A DNA stretch of 62,316 nt, filler included, from Actinomycetota bacterium (GTDB lineage Bacteria > Actinomycetota > Acidimicrobiia > IMCC26256 > VFJJ01), in assembly GCA_009886115.1 (NCBI GenBank). It is 4 parts of 4 records of this genome, joined end to end, with 100 filler letters (N's around TTAATTAATTAA, not from the genome) between each part and the next. Parts side by side here need not be neighbours in the genome. Positions count along the whole stretch, not along the records: positions 24,094 to 41,018 come from VFJJ01000222.1; 3 more parts are not named here. The stretch is one strand, 5' to 3'. Below, piece after piece: positions 3,118 to 48,384 of the stretch; the stretch's first letter is position 1, and each line of letters begins with the position of its first letter. A program made the translations under genes and the position numbers. The notes beneath the pieces are model-generated. The model searched no databases, was not told where the DNA came from, and saw only the letters and a list, made by a program, of their open reading frames with translations.

Positions 3118-3248
3118 ACCCCCGACCAGGAGCCGGCCGAACCCTGACCAGGAGTGAGTACTCCGGCTCATGGGGGGTACAACTCACTCTTGGTCGGTCG
3201 GACGTGCGCCTCGGACGTGCGGTCCGGTGCCCCGCCAGCGCCAGCGCG

Positions 3249-23430: not shown

Positions 23431-23549
23431 CCCCGGCGGCGACCTACTCTCCCAGGGGGCTGCCCCCCAAGTACCATCGGCGCTGGCAAGCTTAACTGCC
23501 GTGTTCGGAATGGGAACGGGTGTGACCTCGCCGCTATTGCCACCGGGAA
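23431..23549 (-). rRNA. rrf: 5S rRNA
   Basis: Minus strand CCCGGTGGC..CACACCCGTTCCCATTCCGAACACGGCAGTTAAGC..GATGGTACT..GGGAGAGTAGGTCGCCGCCGGG. Confidence 0.97.
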
Positions 23550-23620
23550 ACCTGTTGTCAAGGACGCGCTCCGAAGAGCTGCGGTCCTCGAGACCTTGAC
23601 AGCGAGCACAAACAATTGGG

Positions 23621-23993
<373 letters not shown>

Positions 23994-24093
23994 NNNNNNN
24001 NNNNNNNNNNNNNNNNNNNNNNNNNNNNNNNNNNNNNTTAATTAATTAANNNNNNNNNNNNNNNNNNNNNNNNNNNNNNNNNNNNNNNNNNNN
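23994..24093. other. Artificial contig linker
   Basis: N44-TTAATTAATTAA-N44 (stops in all frames). Confidence 0.99.
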
Positions 24094-24108
24094 GGTTCAC
24101 ATCGGGAA

Positions 24109-24552
24109 CTACAGCCTCTCGAAGATCGCCGGCGAGGCAGTGGTGCAGTTCGCCCGGTCGCCGGGGAGCTCGTGGAGGTTCTGGAGGCGTACCTGGCCGC
24201 GGGCGACGAGCTTGCCATCGGTCCGGCGGGTGATCTCGACCATCCAGATCTGCTGCGACCGTCCGACGTGCACCGGTGTACCGACGACGTCGACGATGCC
24301 CTCGGAGTGGGTGCGGATGAAATCGGTGGTATTCGAGACGCCCACGACACCCTTGACGCCGAAGGGGCGCCCGGCCTTGGCCGCACCGTGCGACGCGACC
24401 GACTCCACGATCGAGCAATAGACACCACCGTTGACGATCCCGTACGGCTGGTGGTGGCGAGGACCGATCTCGACCGAAGCCAGCACCCGGGTCTCGGTCC
24501 ACTCGCTGATGACGAGCCCGACCACATCATCCCAATACGTCGCTTCAGTCAT
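24109..24552 (-). CDS. PaaI family thioesterase
   Basis: HHQPYGIVNGGVYCSIVES, GVSNTTDFIR, GRSQQIW. Confidence 0.9.
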   Translation of the reverse strand: MTEATYWDDVVGLVISEWTETRVLASVEIGPRHHQPYGIVNGGVYCSIVESVASHGAAKAGRPFGVKGVVGVSNTTDFIRTHSEGIVDVVGTPVHVGRSQQIWMVEITRRTDGKLVARGQVRLQNLHELPGDRANCTTASPAIFERL

Positions 24553-24626
24553 GGCCGGGACGCTACCCAGGGGGTCCAGCCGTGCATCAACTCGGCGCGA
24601 CACGCGTCCTCGTTCCGTCGACCGGA

Positions 24627-25385
24627 TCAGGTGACGACACCGCGGGCGCCGTCGATGGCGATCGTCTGGCCGCTCACATAGCGGGAATCGTCGGACAGCA
24701 AGAACGTGACCACGTCCCCGATGTCGCTGGCGCTGCCCCAACGCCCGAGCGGCACGCCACCAGCTGGCGCAGCGACGCCCGGCTCGGAACCGAAGCGCCC
24801 CATGGTCATCGGGGTGTCGATCCCGCCTGGGCACACGGAGTTGGCCCGGATCCCGTGCGGGCCGTACTGCACGGCGACGAGGCGCATCAAGGCGCTCACC
24901 GCGCCCTTGCTCGCCGTGTAGCCCGACCCCATCCCGGAGCCGTGCAGGGCAGCGGACGACGAGATCGCCACGACCGACCCGCCTCCAGCGGCCATCACGT
25001 GAGGGAGGACGTGCTTGGTGAACAGGAACGTTCCGTCGAGGTTGACGCGCAGGATCCGGTGGAACTCGTCGAACGGAACCTCGTGGACGGGCACGATGTC
25101 GCCCCCGCCGGCGACTCCGGCCGAGGTGACGAGACCGTCGAGACGACCGAAGGTCTCGATGGCCGAGCCCACCGCCCAGGCCACGGCGGCCTCGTCGCCC
25201 ACGTCGGCCTCCAACGCCATGCAGCCGTCGGGCAGCTCGGCCAGGGTGTCGCCGAGGGTGTCAGGGTTGCGGTCGACGATGGCGACCCGGCCACCGTCGG
25301 CTGCGATCCGCTGCGCCGCTGCCTGGCCGATCCCCGATGCCCCGCCGGTGACCAGGAAGGCCTTGCCCGAGAACCGCATCGTCAT
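24627..25385 (-). CDS. Short-chain dehydrogenase/reductase
   Basis: TGGASGIG, VNLDG, YTASKG, PGGIDTPM. Confidence 0.93.
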   Translation of the reverse strand: MTMRFSGKAFLVTGGASGIGQAAAQRIAADGGRVAIVDRNPDTLGDTLAELPDGCMALEADVGDEAAVAWAVGSAIETFGRLDGLVTSAGVAGGGDIVPVHEVPFDEFHRILRVNLDGTFLFTKHVLPHVMAAGGGSVVAISSSAALHGSGMGSGYTASKGAVSALMRLVAVQYGPHGIRANSVCPGGIDTPMTMGRFGSEPGVAAPAGGVPLGRWGSASDIGDVVTFLLSDDSRYVSGQTIAIDGARGVVT

Positions 25386-25465
25386 GTCTCCCTTGTCGCT
25401 CGGCGTCCATGGCTCGGGTCGGTCGCTGGTGTCCGACGGTCGCCCGTCGAGCAGCGGCCCGCCGA

Positions 25466-25912
25466 TCAGGGCATCGGTGGCAACCGGGTCCGGTAGCTCG
25501 ACGGCAGCAGCTCGAGCAGTTGGCCGTCGGGGTCGCGTACGAACACGGCCATGCCGCCGTAGTCGGTGTCGGCCAGCACCTCGCCGCCGTGCTCCTCGAC
25601 CAGCGCGCACGTGGCCGCGATGTCGTCGACCGCGATCGACAGGTGGGTGAGGCCGGGCTCGTTCATCACCCGCTCCCGGTAGGGGACCGTGGTGCCGGAT
25701 GCGGCGAAGTGCAGCAGCTCCAACACGAGACCGTCGAGGACGAGGTACGTGGCCGAGAACCCCAGCGGGGGCTTCACCCGCAGCAGCGCCGCCGAGCGGT
25801 CGTCGGTGTCGACGAACTCGAACCAGTACCGAAAGCCCAGAACCTCCTCGTAGAAGCGGCGGGACCGGGCGAGATCGGTGACGACCTGACCGGAGTGGTT
25901 GTAGGCAGGCAT
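25466..25912 (-). CDS. VOC/glyoxalase family protein
   Basis: NHSGQVVTDLARSRRFYEEVLGF, LELLHF, THLSIAVDD, RDPDGQLLEL. Confidence 0.9.
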   Translation of the reverse strand: MPAYNHSGQVVTDLARSRRFYEEVLGFRYWFEFVDTDDRSAALLRVKPPLGFSATYLVLDGLVLELLHFAASGTTVPYRERVMNEPGLTHLSIAVDDIAATCALVEEHGGEVLADTDYGGMAVFVRDPDGQLLELLPSSYRTRLPPMP

Positions 25913-26081
25913 GGAGCGTCCTCCGCTGTGTCTCCCTGGCGCGTCCCCGGGGTGGTGTCGTCAGGCGCGACGCTAACGTGACCGCGCTCCGGCTTCCACG
26001 TCTCGGCGCGTCTCGGCCTCGAGCGCCGCTCCGGGTCGGCGGCCGGCCACCGCAGCAGCCCTCTGAGCGCAAGGACGATCC

Positions 26082-26918
26082 GTGACCGATCCGACGCCCA
26101 CACCGTCCGAGCCCACTGCGCCGATCATCCTCGTTGACATCGCCGATCGGGTGGCCGTGGTCACGCTCAATCGTCCGCATCGACGCAACGCCCTGAACTC
26201 GGCGCTGTACGCCCAGATCGCCGAGGTCATGCTCGAGCTCGACGCGGACGACGCCGTTGACGTGATCGTGCTCACTGGCACCGATCCGGCGTTCTCGGCC
26301 GGGGTCGACCTGAAGGAGTTCGGCGGGGTGTTGACACGCGGCGAGGGAGCCCCCTCGGCCCCCGAGGGGGCTCGCGGGGGAGGACGCACCCCGTGGAACG
26401 GCCCCATCCCGCCCGTGGCCAAGCCGATCATCGGCGCCATCAACGGACCCTGCGTGACCGGGGCCCTCGAGCTGGCGTTGGCGTGCGACTTCCTCGTGGC
26501 CTCCGAGAGGGCCCGTTTCGCCGACACCCATGCTCGCGTGGGGGTGATGCCCGGCGACGGGGTGACCGTGAGGCTCCCACAGGCCATCGGGATCAGACGG
26601 GCCAAGGAGATGAGCGTCACCGGCAACTACGTCGACGCGGCGACGGCGCTCGCCTGGGGCCTCGTCAACCACGTGGTGGCCCACGACGACCTGGTCCCGT
26701 TCTGCCGCCGGCTCGCCGCCGACATCGTCACCAACGACCAGGCCGGCGTGCGCACGATGATCGACACCTACGACCGGGTCTGCGCAACAACTGAGGACGA
26801 GGCCTGGCCGATCGAGCTGGCCGTCAGCGTCGGCTGGGAGGGCGCCGGATACGACGGAGACGAGATCGCTCGACGGCGTACGTCGGTGATCGAACGCGGG
26901 CGCAGCCAACAGCGCTGA
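26082..26918 (+). CDS. Enoyl-CoA hydratase/isomerase family protein
   Basis: LNRPHRRNALN, FSAGVDL, AINGPCVTGALELALACD, FADTHARVG. Confidence 0.92.
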   Translation: MTDPTPTPSEPTAPIILVDIADRVAVVTLNRPHRRNALNSALYAQIAEVMLELDADDAVDVIVLTGTDPAFSAGVDLKEFGGVLTRGEGAPSAPEGARGGGRTPWNGPIPPVAKPIIGAINGPCVTGALELALACDFLVASERARFADTHARVGVMPGDGVTVRLPQAIGIRRAKEMSVTGNYVDAATALAWGLVNHVVAHDDLVPFCRRLAADIVTNDQAGVRTMIDTYDRVCATTEDEAWPIELAVSVGWEGAGYDGDEIARRRTSVIERGRSQQR

Positions 26919-26962
26919 GGCATTCGGCTCCCCGCAGCGGCTTCGGCAGCACGCCCGGCTTT

Positions 26963-27033
26963 GCCGCAGGCAGACTGGCAGCGCATTGGACCGCATGCGG
27001 TTCGCGGCGCTGCCAGCTCGGGAGTCGGCGCAC
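26963..27033 (+). repeat. Palindromic element, copy 1 (direct repeat of 28075-28146)
   Basis: GCCGCAGGCAGA-CTGGCAGCGCATTGGACCGCATGCGGTTCGCGGCGCTGCCAGCTCGGGAGTCGGCGCAC. 67 of 72 aligned positions match copy 2 (hand alignment). Confidence 0.95.
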
Positions 27034-27061
27034 CCGCGGAGCGGCGCGTTGAGAGCGTTGT

Positions 27062-27083
27062 TGTCGTACCCGGATGCGAACAT
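27062..27083 (+). promoter_or_regulatory. PafBC/RecA-NDp-like promoter motif with a weak -10, leaderless spacing
   Basis: TGTCGT-ACCCGGATGC-GAACAT, then 6 nt to ATG 27090. Same geometry as the uvrB motif. Confidence 0.55.
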
Positions 27084-27089
27084 CGGGCG

Positions 27090-28016
27090 ATGAGCGAGAA
27101 CGAACGGGACGTGCTGGGCCTGGCGACATGTCAATGGGGTGTCATCACCCGGCATCAGGCAGTCGAGCGAGGGCTGTCTCCGACGACCGTGAGCCGGCGC
27201 GTCCGCGACGGCCGGTGGGAGATCGTGCATCCGAGGGTGTACCGGATCGCCGGCCATCCCGTGTCGTTCCGGCAGCGGTGCATGGCGGCGGTCCTGTGGG
27301 CGGGCGACGATGCGGTGATCTCGGGAGTGACGGCCGGGCGTCTCTGGGGCCTCGACGACGTGACGAGCTCCCATGTCGAGGTCACCGTTCCCCGTTCTCG
27401 AACCCGGACGCCCATCGCCGGGGTGTCGGTCACGGCCACTCGTCATCTCGATCGGCTCGACATCGCCGAACGTGATCGACTTCCCGTCACGAGCCTGGCC
27501 CGAACGGTCGTCGACCTGGCCCGGTGCCTCGGTCCTGACTCCTTGGAGGTGGCGCTCGACGCAGCGCTCCGCGGTGGCCGAACCTCGACCACGGCGATCC
27601 TCCATCGGGCGAAGGTGGTCGCGCCCTCCGGCCGGGCGGGTGTCGGTGTGCTGCGAGAGCTGCTGGCCGAGCGTCGGGGTGGGAAGGCGGTGTCGGGGAG
27701 CGCGCTCGAGACCAGGGTTCGCCGCTTGTTCATCAATGCCGGGCTGCCCGTGCCCGTCTCGCAGCATCGCATCCACGATCGGGGACGGCATGTGGCGCGA
27801 GCAGACTTCGCGTACCCCGAGCTGAAGCTGGTGATCGAGGTCAAGGGTTACCGGTGGCGCAGTGGGCGGGCGGCTTGGCTGCGAGACGCCGTGCGCGACA
27901 GCGAGATGGCAGCGCGGGGCTGGAGGGTCATCACCATCACATGGGACGAGGTCTGCTCGTCACCCGGCGAAGCCATCGGCCGCGTTCGTCGGGCGCTCGG
28001 GTCGAATGCGGCGTGA
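27090..28016 (+). CDS. AbiEi-like N-terminal domain fused to a DUF559/Vsr-like nuclease domain
   Basis: QWGVITRHQA..GLS..GRWEIVHPRVY, AAVLWAG..S..TAGRLWGL, LPVTSLARTVVDLA, SALETRVRRL..GLP.P..Q, DFAYPELKLVIE, RD..GWRVITITW. Confidence 0.88.
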   Translation: MSENERDVLGLATCQWGVITRHQAVERGLSPTTVSRRVRDGRWEIVHPRVYRIAGHPVSFRQRCMAAVLWAGDDAVISGVTAGRLWGLDDVTSSHVEVTVPRSRTRTPIAGVSVTATRHLDRLDIAERDRLPVTSLARTVVDLARCLGPDSLEVALDAALRGGRTSTTAILHRAKVVAPSGRAGVGVLRELLAERRGGKAVSGSALETRVRRLFINAGLPVPVSQHRIHDRGRHVARADFAYPELKLVIEVKGYRWRSGRAAWLRDAVRDSEMAARGWRVITITWDEVCSSPGEAIGRVRRALGSNAA

Positions 28017-28074
28017 CAGCCCCGCCCCCGCGCCCGCCCCGCGCCAGCGTCCCCGCCCCGCCCCGCCCCGAGCC

Positions 28075-28146
28075 GCCGCAGGCAGAGCTGGCAGCGCATT
28101 GGACCGCATGCGGTCCACAGCGCTGCCAGCTCGGGAGTCGGGGCAC
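28075..28146 (+). repeat. Palindromic element, copy 2
   Basis: Core 28085-28132 is GAGCTGGCAGCGC-AT-TGGACCGCATGCGGTCCA-CA-GCGCTGCCAGCTC, a 48-bp palindrome with one 2x2 mismatch. Confidence 0.95.
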
Positions 28147-28198
28147 GCTCGCCGCCGGTCGCTCGCCGCCGGGGCGCCCAGCTCGTAGCCTGGGAGTC

Positions 28199-29437
28199 AT
28201 GAAGGCACTCCTGTATGGCGTGGCGCCCGACCCGTCGGTCGCTGTCCCCGACACCGACAACCATCTCCTGCGCAGCTTGGCCTGCACGCCGATGCGGCTC
28301 GAGCCCGAGATGGCCGATCCCGGGTTCCTGCTGCCCGACTGGGTGATCACCCGACCCCGGCTCACCGGGATCTGCGGCTCCGACTCCAAGCAGGTCTTCA
28401 TGGACTGGGGCCGCGAACTGCCTCCGACCGGCAACCCGATGAAGGCGTTCTTCTCCCTGCCGCAGGTGCTCGGCCACGAGGTCGTCGCCGACGTGGTGGC
28501 CCTCGGGCCCGAGGCGCAGGGCCTGGAGATCGGTGATCGGGTCGTGCTCAACCCCTGGCTCAGTTGCGGGCCCCGAGGCGTCGAGCCGATGTGTCCCCCG
28601 TGCCGCACGGGCGACTACAGCCTGTGCGCCAACTTTGCGGTGGGCCCGATTGCTCCGGGGATCCACACCGGTACGAGCCGTGACGCCAGTGGTGGCTACG
28701 CCGAGCTGATGCCGGCGCACGACTCGATGCTGTTCAAGGTCCCGGCAGCGATGCCCGACGAGGTCGCGGTCTTCGCCGACCCGTTCGCCGTCATGCTCCA
28801 CGCCATCACGCGCAACCCTCCGCCCAACGGGGGCAAGGCGATGGTCTACGGCGCGGGCGCGCTGGGGACGTGCGCGACGGCCATCCTCAGAGGCCTGTAC
28901 CCCGATGTCGAGGTGCTCGTGGTGGCTCGCTTCGAGGCTCAGGCGGCCATGGCCCGAAAGCTGGGGGCGACGGTCATCGGCCACGAGCCGGCGATCAGGG
29001 TCATCGAGGAGGCTGCGGCCTGGTCGGGCGGGGTCTTGCAGGCGAGCGACGGGCTGCCCATGTGCTACCCCGGCGGGATCGACGTCGTGTACGACACCGT
29101 CGCCAAGATGGAGACCTTCGAGGTCGCCGCCCGGGTGCTCAAGGCCCGCTCCACGCTGGTGAAGGCCGGCGTGCACGGCCCCACCGCCTGGGAGGACACG
29201 CCGCTGTACTTCAAGGAGATCGCCATGGTCGGCTCGAACGCGTTCGGGTTCGAGGACGTCGAAGGCGTTCGCCAGCACGGCATTGCGCACTACCTCGACC
29301 TGGTGGCCGACGGCCGGATCGACCTCACGGGCATGCTCACCCACACGTTCGCCCTCGACGCGTGGCGCGATGCGTTCGGTGCGTTGGCCACGCAGGACGC
29401 CAGCGGGGCGATCAAGGTGGCGTTCGACTTCAGATGA
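28199..29437 (+). CDS. Zn-dependent medium-chain dehydrogenase
   Basis: GICGSD, LGHE, four structural Cys (C..CPPC..C), GAGALG. Confidence 0.92.
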   Translation: MKALLYGVAPDPSVAVPDTDNHLLRSLACTPMRLEPEMADPGFLLPDWVITRPRLTGICGSDSKQVFMDWGRELPPTGNPMKAFFSLPQVLGHEVVADVVALGPEAQGLEIGDRVVLNPWLSCGPRGVEPMCPPCRTGDYSLCANFAVGPIAPGIHTGTSRDASGGYAELMPAHDSMLFKVPAAMPDEVAVFADPFAVMLHAITRNPPPNGGKAMVYGAGALGTCATAILRGLYPDVEVLVVARFEAQAAMARKLGATVIGHEPAIRVIEEAAAWSGGVLQASDGLPMCYPGGIDVVYDTVAKMETFEVAARVLKARSTLVKAGVHGPTAWEDTPLYFKEIAMVGSNAFGFEDVEGVRQHGIAHYLDLVADGRIDLTGMLTHTFALDAWRDAFGALATQDASGAIKVAFDFR

Positions 29438-30329
29438 CGCCCGCCGACCGGGCCAGCAGCTCGAGCGAGTCGGGGGTGAATGGACGGGGCAGGGTGAGGA
29501 TGACCCGCTGCACGCCCACGGCTGCGTAGCGCTCGATCTCGCCCCGCAACTCGTTCGGAAAGCCCACGAACATGCCCGACGCGCCCTCCTCGGACGGCAG
29601 CCCCATGCGGGCCTGAGCTGTCGCCAGTCGGGTCACGGCCGAGGCCGCCAGGCGCGCCCTGATGCGCTCCAGAGCGGGCTCGTCGTTGGCCAGCACGGCG
29701 ATGAGGTTGAGCGTGGCCTCGACCGGCGCCGCCGAACGGCCCACCTCGCGCTCGGCGAGCCGGAGCCGGGCGATGCGATCGGCCATGTACGCGGGGGTCC
29801 CCAGCCCGTTCCAGGCCACGGCGTGACGGGCGGCGATCCGCAGTGCCGCGGACGACGCTCCCGCCACCAGGACCGGCGCCGGCTGTTGGATCGGTCGAGG
29901 GTTGATCGTCGCCCAGCGGCTGGCGATGAACGCGCAGGCGTCGTCGAGCGCCTGCAGCCGCTCGCGGGTGGCCGCGAAGTCGAAACCGAAGTCGGCGTGC
30001 TCCTCGGGGTCCCAGCCGGCGCCGAGACCGACGATGGCCCGTCCACCCGAGATCAGGTCGAGGGACTGGAGCTGGCGCAGGAGGATCGCCGGATGCCGGA
30101 ACGACACCGGCGAGACCAGGCATCCCAGGCGGATCCGGCTGGTGAGGGGAGCCAGCGCGGTCACGAGCGACACGGCGTCGAGCAGCCCCAGACGCTCGTC
30201 GAAGCCGGCCACCGCCCTGAGGTGATCGGATGCGTACAGCTCGTCGAAGCCGAGCTCCTCGGCCAACAACGCGGCGCGCCGAGCCTCGTCCCACGTGAGG
30301 TTCATCGTGCCGGCGACGCTGAAGCGCAT
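29430..30329 (-). CDS. LLM-class flavin/F420-dependent oxidoreductase
   Basis: AEELGFD..SDH, IRLGCLV..FRHP, LDLISGGR..GLGAGW. Confidence 0.9.
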   Translation of the reverse strand: MRFSVAGTMNLTWDEARRAALLAEELGFDELYASDHLRAVAGFDERLGLLDAVSLVTALAPLTSRIRLGCLVSPVSFRHPAILLRQLQSLDLISGGRAIVGLGAGWDPEEHADFGFDFAATRERLQALDDACAFIASRWATINPRPIQQPAPVLVAGASSAALRIAARHAVAWNGLGTPAYMADRIARLRLAEREVGRSAAPVEATLNLIAVLANDEPALERIRARLAASAVTRLATAQARMGLPSEEGASGMFVGFPNELRGEIERYAAVGVQRVILTLPRPFTPDSLELLARSAGVI

Positions 30330-30340
30330 GCCGGGCACCG

Positions 30341-31231
30341 TCAGCCTCCGAGAGCGTCGGACAAGCGACGCCAGCCTTCGACGGGCATGTCGGTCCATTC
30401 CTCGGTGAGGAGTTGCACCGCGACGTGCGAAGCGCCGGCATCGAGATGAGCCTCGATCCGGGGCACGAGGGAGTCGATCGAGCCCCAGGCCACGATGGCG
30501 TCGACGAGCCGGTCGCTGCCGCCGCCGTCGAGGTCGTCGTCGCTGAAACCCTGACGCAGCAAGGAGTTCCGATAGTTCGGCTGGCCGAGGTAGCCAGCGA
30601 GGTGCTTGCGGGCGATCGCCCGGGCGGTGGCCGGGTCGGTCTCGAGCACCACCTTCTGGTCGGGAGCGAGGATCTTGCCCGCACCGAGGACAGCGCGGGC
30701 GCCGGCGGTGTGCTCGGGGGTCGTGAGATACGGATGCGCGCCGTCGGCGCGGTCGCGGGCGACCGCGAGCATCTTCGGGCCGAGGGCGGCAATGACCCGC
30801 GGGCGCACCGGGGCGTCCTCGGGGTACGCGGTGTACGGCGCAGCGTCGAGCGCGTCGAGGTACGCCCGCATGGCGGACAGCGGCGGCCCGTAGCGGCCAC
30901 CGCGCACGTCCTCGACGAGCCAGGCATGGCTGACGCCGAGCCCGAGCAGGAACCGGTGGGGGAACACGGCTTCGAGCGCCCGTTGCCCGTTGGCGGTGGC
31001 GGTCGCGTCGCGATTGTGGATCGGCGCGATGCCCGTCGCCACCTTCAGTCGTGACGTGTTCGACAGGAACAGCGTGGCGTTCACGAACGCGTTGCGATTC
31101 GTGGCCTCGGGGAACCACAGGCAGCCGAAGCCGCGCATCCCATCGAGCTCCTCGAGTGCGGCGCGGGCCTCGGGCCAGGGTTGACGGTCGAAGGCGAAGG
31201 TCCACAGACCGATACGGCCGAGGTCGATCAT
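30341..31231 (-). CDS. LLM-class putative F420-dependent oxidoreductase (TIGR03620-like)
   Basis: VATGIAPI, RFLLGLGVSH, AALGPKML..ADGAHPY, AGASHVAVQ. Confidence 0.88.
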   Translation of the reverse strand: MIDLGRIGLWTFAFDRQPWPEARAALEELDGMRGFGCLWFPEATNRNAFVNATLFLSNTSRLKVATGIAPIHNRDATATANGQRALEAVFPHRFLLGLGVSHAWLVEDVRGGRYGPPLSAMRAYLDALDAAPYTAYPEDAPVRPRVIAALGPKMLAVARDRADGAHPYLTTPEHTAGARAVLGAGKILAPDQKVVLETDPATARAIARKHLAGYLGQPNYRNSLLRQGFSDDDLDGGGSDRLVDAIVAWGSIDSLVPRIEAHLDAGASHVAVQLLTEEWTDMPVEGWRRLSDALGG

Positions 31232-43690: not shown

Positions 43691-43703
43691 GTTCGGGGGC
43701 CGA

Positions 43704-48249: not shown

Positions 48250-48324
48250 GCGCTCATCCTCGCGCGACCGGTCCGCCCCGTCGACGTGCCCGTTTCGTCG
48301 GGCCCCGACTCGTCACACCCTCAT

Positions 48325-48367
48325 TTCTTCGCGATCTCGCGCACCCCCGGTGAAAAATCGCGAAGAA
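48325..48367. repeat. Intergenic inverted repeat
   Basis: TTCTTCGCGAT-N21-ATCGCGAAGAA. Confidence 0.75.
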
Positions 48368-48384
48368 TCGAACACACAAGGCGA

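Follow-up and report, generated by a model that had tools for sequence, protein, structure and literature searches.

Among described systems, the closest in organisation is the one formed by repetitive extragenic palindromes (REPs) and REP-associated tyrosine transposases (RAYTs; also TnpA-REP, REPtrons, and TIRtrons). According to the accessible parts of two sources, each repeat family is served by one chromosomal gene, which is flanked by the repeats and accompanied by many extragenic solo copies, and RAYT genes are nearly absent from phages and plasmids and give no sign of self-duplication (10.1101/2021.07.10.451892, PMC3733652). The operator of AbiE systems is described, in the text available, as a perfect 11-bp repeat around 27 nt (11-N27-11) that extends to 23-3-23, with the winged helix proposed to sit on the outer 11 bp (PMC3985639, PMC7319586). 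The EDxHD homing endonuclease I-Bth0305I is presented, in the available portion of its description, as a dimer cutting a pseudo-palindromic target with H213 as putative general base (PMC3239194), and DUF559 has been grouped with Vsr and the structure 3r3p in a source whose accessible text holds nothing on palindromes (PMC3424549).

The locus considered here belongs to an Actinomycetota bacterium (assembly GCA_009886115.1, source genome G000). It is situated in a window of 62,316 nt, i.e., the whole stretch of DNA that was analysed, which consists of four contigs joined by N runs and contains the cassette wholly inside contig C70. C-numbers denote contigs and the cassettes named after them, and G001 is the genome of a congeneric sister species. 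The cassette is composed of a gene for a 308-aa AbiEi-DUF559 fusion protein and a palindromic repeat on either side of it. We consider it rather probable that gene and palindromes form a real and widespread system, most likely nuclease-driven and damage-induced, in which a REP/RAYT-like logic is built from unrelated parts. In its logic the system is a case of convergence on REP/RAYT, and the data point to an actinobacterial selfish repeat system of an undescribed type. It is regarded as new because the known families each fail on a defining feature, and not because movement was shown. Within titles and abstract beginnings, with subscription papers and bioRxiv supplements outside reach, no description of such a palindrome/AbiEi-DUF559 system and none pairing DUF559 with AbiEi was found.

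Palindrome-bracketed genes and dispersed palindrome families

The gene (27090 to 28016, plus strand) is enclosed by two direct copies of a repeat, copy 1 at 26963 to 27033 (71 nt) and copy 2 at 28075 to 28146 (72 nt), both on the plus strand, which are 67/72 identical with one gap and represent the top-ranked direct family, with a spacing of 1113, in a repeat search of positions 24000 to 31000. Copy 2 comprises a 48-bp palindrome (28085 to 28132) with 22 of 24 pairs, one 2x2 mismatch, and a DNA fold z of -4.25, and the palindromic core of copy 1 (26972 to 27019) is more degenerate (z -1.51). A C-rich low-complexity spacer (28017 to 28074) separates the stop codon from copy 2. The preliminary description of this locus had read the arrangement in the same way, i.e., as a single nuclease gene between two direct copies of about 72 bp with the same identity and the better palindrome in copy 2. 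Its choice of the 72-mer as the unit of the element has to be corrected, since the unit conserved family-wide is the 48/49-bp core and the 10 to 12 shared flank bases are specific to the C70 pair.

All seven full-length paralogues of G000 (33-68% identical) are bracketed by a 48/49-bp palindrome pair of their own family, which resembles the single-copy RAYT gene flanked by cognate repeats. Of 41 genomes of the order, 37 contain homologues, and a profile search across the phylum detected them in 60 of 151 genomes, a tally that includes three unpublished genomes (G382, G264, and G311). From 85 distinct homologous loci, 76 with full flanks were evaluated, and a repeat shared upstream and downstream (E<1e-5) was counted in 59 of these, compared to 2 of 150 random G000 open reading frames (ORFs). 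This count was preferred because a hairpin finder that extends stems from the loop missed many pairs (31/76 upstream, 35/76 downstream) and a stricter score recognised both sides in 25/76. The proposed tie between a non-HUH nuclease gene and a dispersed palindrome family is thus upheld. The gene itself does not multiply, each repeat family having one gene. It had no match in 50,697 phage records and one near-full match in 72,556 plasmids, and in this near-absence it is again similar to RAYT genes.

A geometry scan of G000 revealed 189 such palindromes, compared to 7 after shuffling, and 160 of them fall into seven clusters, six of which match G000 cassettes and one a cassette found only in G001. 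By a seed scan, 214 sites were obtained (64, 39, 34, 27, 19, 15, 13, and 3 per family, the family counted 34 being an undercount with 52-60 by other counts), 17 of them inside ORFs according to crude gene calls, and the reversed genome gave no site for the seeds printed. The C70 family is the smallest, with its own two copies and one solo at contig C107, and among 264 genomes of the order its palindrome pattern recurs once only, as a solo in G001. The blastn search with the 72-mer, which had been recommended for counting solos, yields this one solo only, and the approximately 200 solo or dispersed sites of G000 emerge from the geometry and seed scans. Matching solos also accompany the cassettes of G022 and G026. 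As for palindrome density, 2 were present in 313 kb of gene-less genomes, compared to 4 in 240 kb taken without selection from two genomes that have the gene, numbers that are too small for a comparison and come from genomes of different GC content. An Rfam scan gave no match at gathering level and two chance-level matches. Dispersed structured repeats are likewise represented by the unassigned stem-loop repeats Myt-1 and Myt-8 of M. tuberculosis (72 and 92 nt, 75 and 33 copies), for which the accessible text, different from the situation here, names no partner gene (PMC2267715).

The solos lie mostly 3' of stop codons (median 30 nt), and 67 sites are located between convergent genes versus 19 between divergent genes at a background of 674:673. 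This preference for gene ends, together with the observation that housekeeping genes can sit between two solos by chance (twice at C52, and at C120), is what one would expect if a terminator-like hairpin had been duplicated locally on both sides of an ordinary gene. Against this explanation stand the lack of a T-run terminator at the C70 locus, the own-family bracketing of all seven paralogues, its excess over random ORFs, the fixed length across unrelated sequences, and the reciprocal copy numbers described below. As an account of the gene-repeat pairing, terminator duplication is refuted, and overall we rate it as highly improbable; solos may secondarily act as RNA hairpins. Three observations which the preliminary description had set against its own reading, namely a general lack of flanking palindromes among homologues, an absence of solo or empty alleles, and a fixed position of the gene, do not hold.

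Several further observations concern the surroundings of the palindromes. In the 12 nt outside each arm of the 214 G000 palindromes, C predominates over G on the 5' side (2580 versus 1058), unlike in 286 control hairpins (2407 versus 2277). Co-mobilisation of flanks by cutting 10-15 bp outside the palindrome was considered and rejected, the flank identity of nearest neighbours being barely above random. Short tandem repeats, considered as repair scars, occur beside 6 of 91 palindromes versus 102 of 4778, five of the six being from the source genus. In the window, solo palindromes of the C61 and C76 cassette families are located at 3146-3194 and 48321-48370, and the end of contig C69 (about 23500-23990) presumably corresponds to 5S and 23S rRNA ends. 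A shorter AbiEi-like gene without flanking palindromes is present at G000:C128:66059-66661, followed by what appears by eye to be a nucleotidyltransferase-type toxin frame with a stop, and probably represents an ordinary AbiE pair.

Gain and loss between sister genomes

The cassette is preceded by a crotonase gene (ECH_1; 26082 to 26918, plus strand) and followed by a zinc-binding dehydrogenase gene identified by domain match (28199 to 29437, plus strand), both outside the element. As had been stated before, no transposase, integrase, or AbiEii gene was found between these neighbours by ORF and domain scan. In G001, where the flanks are 85-89% identical, both genes adjoin at a distance of approximately 150 bp, without the gene and without a palindrome. 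A 10-nt match to one palindrome arm follows the stop codon at this empty site, and 17 of 2000 random 150-mers equal it in a post hoc comparison. Due to this possible remnant and the solo in G001, a loss of the C70 cassette from G001 is suggested rather than a recent gain in G000.

An empty site marked by one solo palindrome had been expected at this locus. Solos were indeed found at three other orthologous sites, whereas the empty C70 site is devoid of a palindrome. In detail, the C76 site holds a solo in G001, and at two sites with a cassette in G001 a solo is present in G000, in one case diverged with compensating changes. The C178 site is empty in G001, also without a palindrome. The C196 and C131 cassettes are present in both genomes, the C61 cassette occurs in G001 in a rearranged locus, and the C74 cassette was not found in G001, its right flank alone being syntenic. 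In case of the G001:C200 cassette (L125:2180-4300), two upstream palindromes and approximately 900 bp of extra DNA before the last palindrome were observed, and its G000 counterpart is one palindrome whose left part matches the first copy and whose right part matches the last copy. Cassettes of different families cluster in G001, two within 2 kb and three within 20 kb (L126 = G001:C24; L123 = G001:C113).

For the dispersed copies, 17 G000 palindrome sites are resolvable in 760 kb of G001 (5.8 Mb in total). A script called 8 of them shared and 9 absent, with one call wrong each way by eye, and two of the 17 hold a different palindrome in the two genomes. For two families, the sister genome with the gene is also the one rich in copies (52 vs 4; 0 vs 43). 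In four public runs, available as contigs, the cassette is present in near-identical and approximately 96% identical strains; run X1 is possibly the source sample, and run X7, with a small share, was used only as a relative. The X4 strain differs by 4 substitutions in approximately 1.6 kb but by 18 gap positions, of which those listed lie just outside copy 1 (26948-26974), and by a 14-nt difference just outside copy 2 (28146), so that the outer flanks of the repeat copies look hypermutable in this strain. The synonymous divergence at shared cassettes (0.67, 0.97) is higher than that of the two genes beside the C70 site (0.37, 0.44), which could be explained by lower codon bias. A Ku gene is present at G000:C36:4069-4617, and end joining is thus a possible repair route.

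IS200/IS605 elements, miniature inverted-repeat transposable elements, and classical insertion sequences differ from the system described here in that it has no transposase and no second copy above 69% identity, and that the flanks of solos are not common to nearest neighbours. The system differs from REP/RAYT in its occurrence in Actinomycetota, in its DNA-damage promoter, and in cassettes that differ between sister species.

Protein, promoter, and site

The 308-aa protein matches AbiEi_4, AbiEi_1, and DUF559, with MTES_1575 under the cut-off, and was modelled with AlphaFold2 at a pLDDT (predicted local distance difference test) of 95 from a 78-row alignment. In this model, residues 3-196 (27096 to 27677, plus strand) comprise a winged helix and a C-terminal domain and align with 6y8q (Z 13.3, root-mean-square deviation (rmsd) 4.2, 185 residues; Foldseek E 2.5e-7), in agreement with the AbiEi assignment by PADLOC (E 9.8e-36). 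Residues 204-308 (27699 to 28013, plus strand) align with 3r3p, the catalytic domain of I-Bth0305I (Z 13.4, rmsd 2.1, 95 residues; profile E 2.6e-6). Judged by the model, a full AbiEi (COG5340) module, which is predicted to read a 23-24-bp half-site, is followed in the same chain by a Vsr/EDxHD nuclease domain, which is predicted to form the dimer interface. The two modules account for both halves of the protein and leave no place for the HUH/Y1 tyrosine fold of RAYTs. Like AbiEi and Rv2827c, it has the whole two-domain fold and a 48-49-bp site whose outer 11 bp are best kept, but there is no adjacent AbiEii DUF1814 nucleotidyltransferase toxin gene, the neighbours being crotonase and dehydrogenase, the nuclease is fused, and the sites are found at both gene ends, off the promoter, and dispersed genome-wide. 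The catalytic fold and the E-D-x-H-D residues of the family are shared with I-Bth0305I and Vsr, as are the order of N-terminal DNA reader and C-terminal nuclease and a predicted dimer on a long palindrome. Homing endonucleases differ, however, from this free-standing intergenic gene without intron or intein, whose neighbours are intact and adjacent in G001, whose presumed target is kept at both gene ends and not disrupted, whose reader is another one, and whose His is replaced in the C70 copy; in contrast to Vsr, no methylase partner is present.

Among 151 sequences, E207 is conserved in 150, D239 in 151, H257 in 144, and D266 in 146. The C70 protein keeps E207, D239, E250, D266, and R269, with K in place of the family D252 and R in place of the family H257, a combination shared only with its paralogue C74. 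By a crude count, the ratio of nonsynonymous to synonymous divergence (dN/dS) between these two proteins is 0.22 for the whole protein and 0.17 for the nuclease domain, which argues for constraint on the K252/R257 variant. From the residues present, D239-E250-x-K252 could form a canonical PD-(D/E)XK site; alternatively, the domain may be retained solely for dimerisation, and we give about even odds that the C70 nuclease is inactive. The C70 copy is thus a genuine yet atypical member, with a nuclease site rewired or weakened (D252K, H257R) and with only one solo; the C74 palindrome family still holds 11 solos. In the C-terminal domain of the AbiEi module (residues 78-142), S78, E97, T134, R138, and D142 are family-conserved, and the C70 copy also lacks the conserved H79 and H115. 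Non-templated G tailing by this domain was weighed, and no evidence for it was found.

A two-copy prediction of the protein scored 0.49, compared to 0.00 for the best of three controls. Its runs agree in at least 84% of contacts with a pLDDT of at least 81, and all named interface residues fall into 250-305. Solved homodimers reach the mark applied for dimers in 20 of 30 cases and single chains in 1 of 23, a calibration that is roughly applicable with an own alignment. The prediction supports a homodimer formed via the nuclease domains.

A PafBC-type DNA-damage promoter (TGTCGT-N10-GA-N3-T, -26 element plus -10) is predicted at 27062 to 27083 on the plus strand, with G as first -10 base. As the ATG follows after only 6 nt, the transcript is probably leaderless. 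The consensus reported in the accessible text is tGTCgg(N10)tA(N3)T, PafBC being activated by single-stranded DNA (PMC8635444), and variants of the motif are on record in the available parts of a further source (PMC8151990). The preliminary description had proposed that the cassette carries its own promoter, which stands for the PafBC-type element; no sigma-70 -35/-10 promoter was found at the C70 locus. In G000, the same motif is located upstream of recA, radA, uvrB, sbcD, xseA, and AddB-like and UvrD-like genes, among 53 listed sites of which many are due to chance, and a pafA-pafB-pafC-like operon (two WYL genes after a pafA-like gene) is present. Promoter geometry, regulon content, and the presence of pafBC thus resemble the mycobacterial PafBC regulon. 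The core motif precedes 32 of 81 homologues versus 60 of 3204 background windows (16 versus 50 for the full motif), and 6 of the 7 G000 paralogues have the core or full motif.

Within the window, uvrB of contig C71 carries a PafBC-type promoter at 43691 (minus strand). The same promoter is found in G000 with an ORF family of C39, C42, C113, C132, C140, C148, and C219 (mostly 280-460 aa; one tested, no NCBIfam match), which we take to resemble DUF222/13E12 proteins. Rv3517, Rv3714c, Rv1482c, and Rv3555c presumably are members of the AbiEi-DUF559 family as well. In the accessible table rows and passages of PMC8151990 (Tables S5, S7), Rv3517, which bears an Abi_Ei_antitoxin label, is mitomycin-induced and is with the other three a PafBC candidate; these parts make no link to palindromes.

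The properties of protein and promoter bear on the reading in which the protein would serve the host as a domesticated DNA-binding regulator or repair accessory, with the palindromes as host-selected operators or loading sites and the nuclease incidental or dead. AbiEi proteins are repressors of 23-bp inverted repeats according to the available text (PMC3985639, PMC7319586), the gene sits by its promoter motif in a DNA-damage regulon, and the C70 copy has lost the catalytic His and is nevertheless constrained to the degree given above. We judge this reading to be improbable, since each of E207, D239, H257, and D266 persists in 144-151 of 151 relatives, the solos lie mostly at gene ends and between convergent genes and not at promoters, about half of the 17 comparable solo sites differ between congeneric genomes with two holding another palindrome, and a stable regulon is difficult to reconcile with seven genes that each have an unrelated family of sites and turn over between sister species.

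The geometry of the site was derived from 46 loci with two palindromic copies, out of 65 with a shared repeat. Pairing is high (0.83-0.93) at a distance of 14-24 bp from the centre, lower (0.60-0.72) at 9-13 bp, and lower still (0.40-0.51) at 2-3 bp, and drops outside to 0.54 at 25 bp and 0.37 at 27 bp, i.e., the half-length is 24 with a sharp edge; a similar profile was obtained for 210 genomic copies. The copies are single 48/49-bp palindromes, which distinguishes them from the 20-40-bp REPs or REP doublets, and no GTAG/CGTC tag was observed in eight half-site consensuses. Of the 46 loci, 15 have direct pairs and 15 have inverted ones; the orientation is ambiguous in 12 and unscored in 4. 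Direct orientation, which the preliminary description had taken from the C70 pair, is therefore not the rule, and a pure direct-repeat or target-duplication model was rejected. The co-variation of flank sequence with the protein, which it had proposed to test, is visible in 40 loci: the more alike two proteins are, the more alike are their outer arms (identity from 0.40 up to 0.89; rho 0.12-0.22), six loci with mis-centred or longer palindromes being dropped and the 40-protein tree being a quick version. Some distant homologues (L109, L112, L113, and L066, from Blastococcus and a metagenome contig, and L307) are flanked by 63-82-bp palindromes, which recall the wider 13-bp spacing of Rv2827c sites.

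Considering this profile together with the AbiE operator geometry and the I-Bth0305I dimer, the simplest fit would be a layout with the readers on the outer arms and the two nuclease domains together at the centre of symmetry. Duplex binding to an AbiEi box would account for the constant 2x24 layout and the stronger conservation of the outer arms at least as well as a hairpin. The alternative is the same system with a folded single strand as substrate, in which the 48-mer would form a 22-23-bp stem corresponding to one AbiEi half-site and the Vsr-like domain would nick at the mismatch or loop, as RAYTs act on REP hairpins. The response of PafBC to single-stranded DNA in the accessible text suits such a substrate (PMC8635444). 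It is furthermore favoured by the preference of solos for convergent gene pairs on an even background and by the dip in pairing approximately 8-11 bp from the centre, where the C74 family keeps a 3-nt asymmetry, like a conserved bubble. Inner stems covary in the C131 and C178 families (0.80 vs null 0.70 and 0.94 vs 0.80, reached by none of 500 nulls), but not in the other five of the seven, with C61 below the null. Template-switch correction of imperfect palindromes could yield such covariation passively. In addition, pairing declines towards the loop and is best at the ends away from it, and the contact between nuclease domains in the predicted dimer would match a duplex site of two-fold symmetry. 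All in all, we regard the folded strand as an unlikely substrate.

Weight of the evidence and implications

For the duplex substrate, a mechanism can be outlined. DNA damage would induce the gene via PafBC, each AbiEi module would read one 23-24-bp half-site with the winged helix on the conserved outer 11 bp, and two subunits would come together at the centre via their nuclease domains to nick or cut the site. In the course of break repair, palindromes would be copied, moved, homogenised, or deleted, and a gene between two palindromes would now and then be gained or lost. In its most far-reaching form, which we put forward tentatively as one possibility, AbiEi boxes, originally the operator of an antitoxin, would have turned into a replicating element that spreads in actinobacterial chromosomes and is served by an AbiEi-EDxHD fusion, which is induced by a PafBC-type damage regulator of the host, dimerises on the boxes, and cuts centrally. 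They would constitute phylum-wide selfish repeats independent of HUH, DDE, and tyrosine/serine enzymes and would offer, as a natural library, thousands of proteins each paired with its 48-bp site, and the K/R swap of the C70 copy would restore a canonical PD-(D/E)XK site.

A number of observations weigh against a mobile, nuclease-driven, and damage-induced system. In an independent phylum-wide set (47 loci, of which 3 had short flanks; two unpublished loci were excluded), the flanking repeat is shared in only 22 of 44 loci, both copies pass the palindrome score in 12 of 44, and the PafBC motif is present in just 5 of 44; many top profile matches have no flanking repeat. Due to the first of these numbers, bracketing has to be considered typical of the order and some distant lineages, but not universal. 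A near-identical cassette at two sites was not found, the next relative being 68-69% identical, and metagenome and genome scans (38 and 32 loci) gave no near-full match above 42% identity and hence no second site for the C70 cassette. The proposed search for excised or circular junctions revealed no joint skipping the cassette in the four public runs, which consist of contigs only and cannot show absence. Copy number does not track the gene in three families (16 vs 20, 12 vs 7, and 3 vs 1, the last being the C70 family). Between the palindrome and the -26 element lie 42 bp, so that, unlike AbiE operators, it does not cover the promoter. The pairing profile was drawn from loci selected for pairing, and arm identity correlates with the winged helix (rho 0.19) not clearly better than with the nuclease domain (0.12), kin not being independent. 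Finally, the C70 copy lacks the His general base kept in 144 of 151 relatives, and the score of the dimer prediction may be due to a similarity with solved structures of the Vsr fold.

If the system operates as proposed, a function would be provided for a very large protein family labelled 'AbiEi antitoxin' or 'DUF559', which comprises 11,154 clusters at 50% identity (E up to 1e-10, not all necessarily full-length members), and the dispersed palindromes in actinobacteria would obtain an origin. Since each gene adjoins its predicted site, specificity rules and long-site nucleases would be readable directly. With its unrelated chemistry and defined inducing signal, the system would furthermore represent an independent test of how and why REP-like populations persist.

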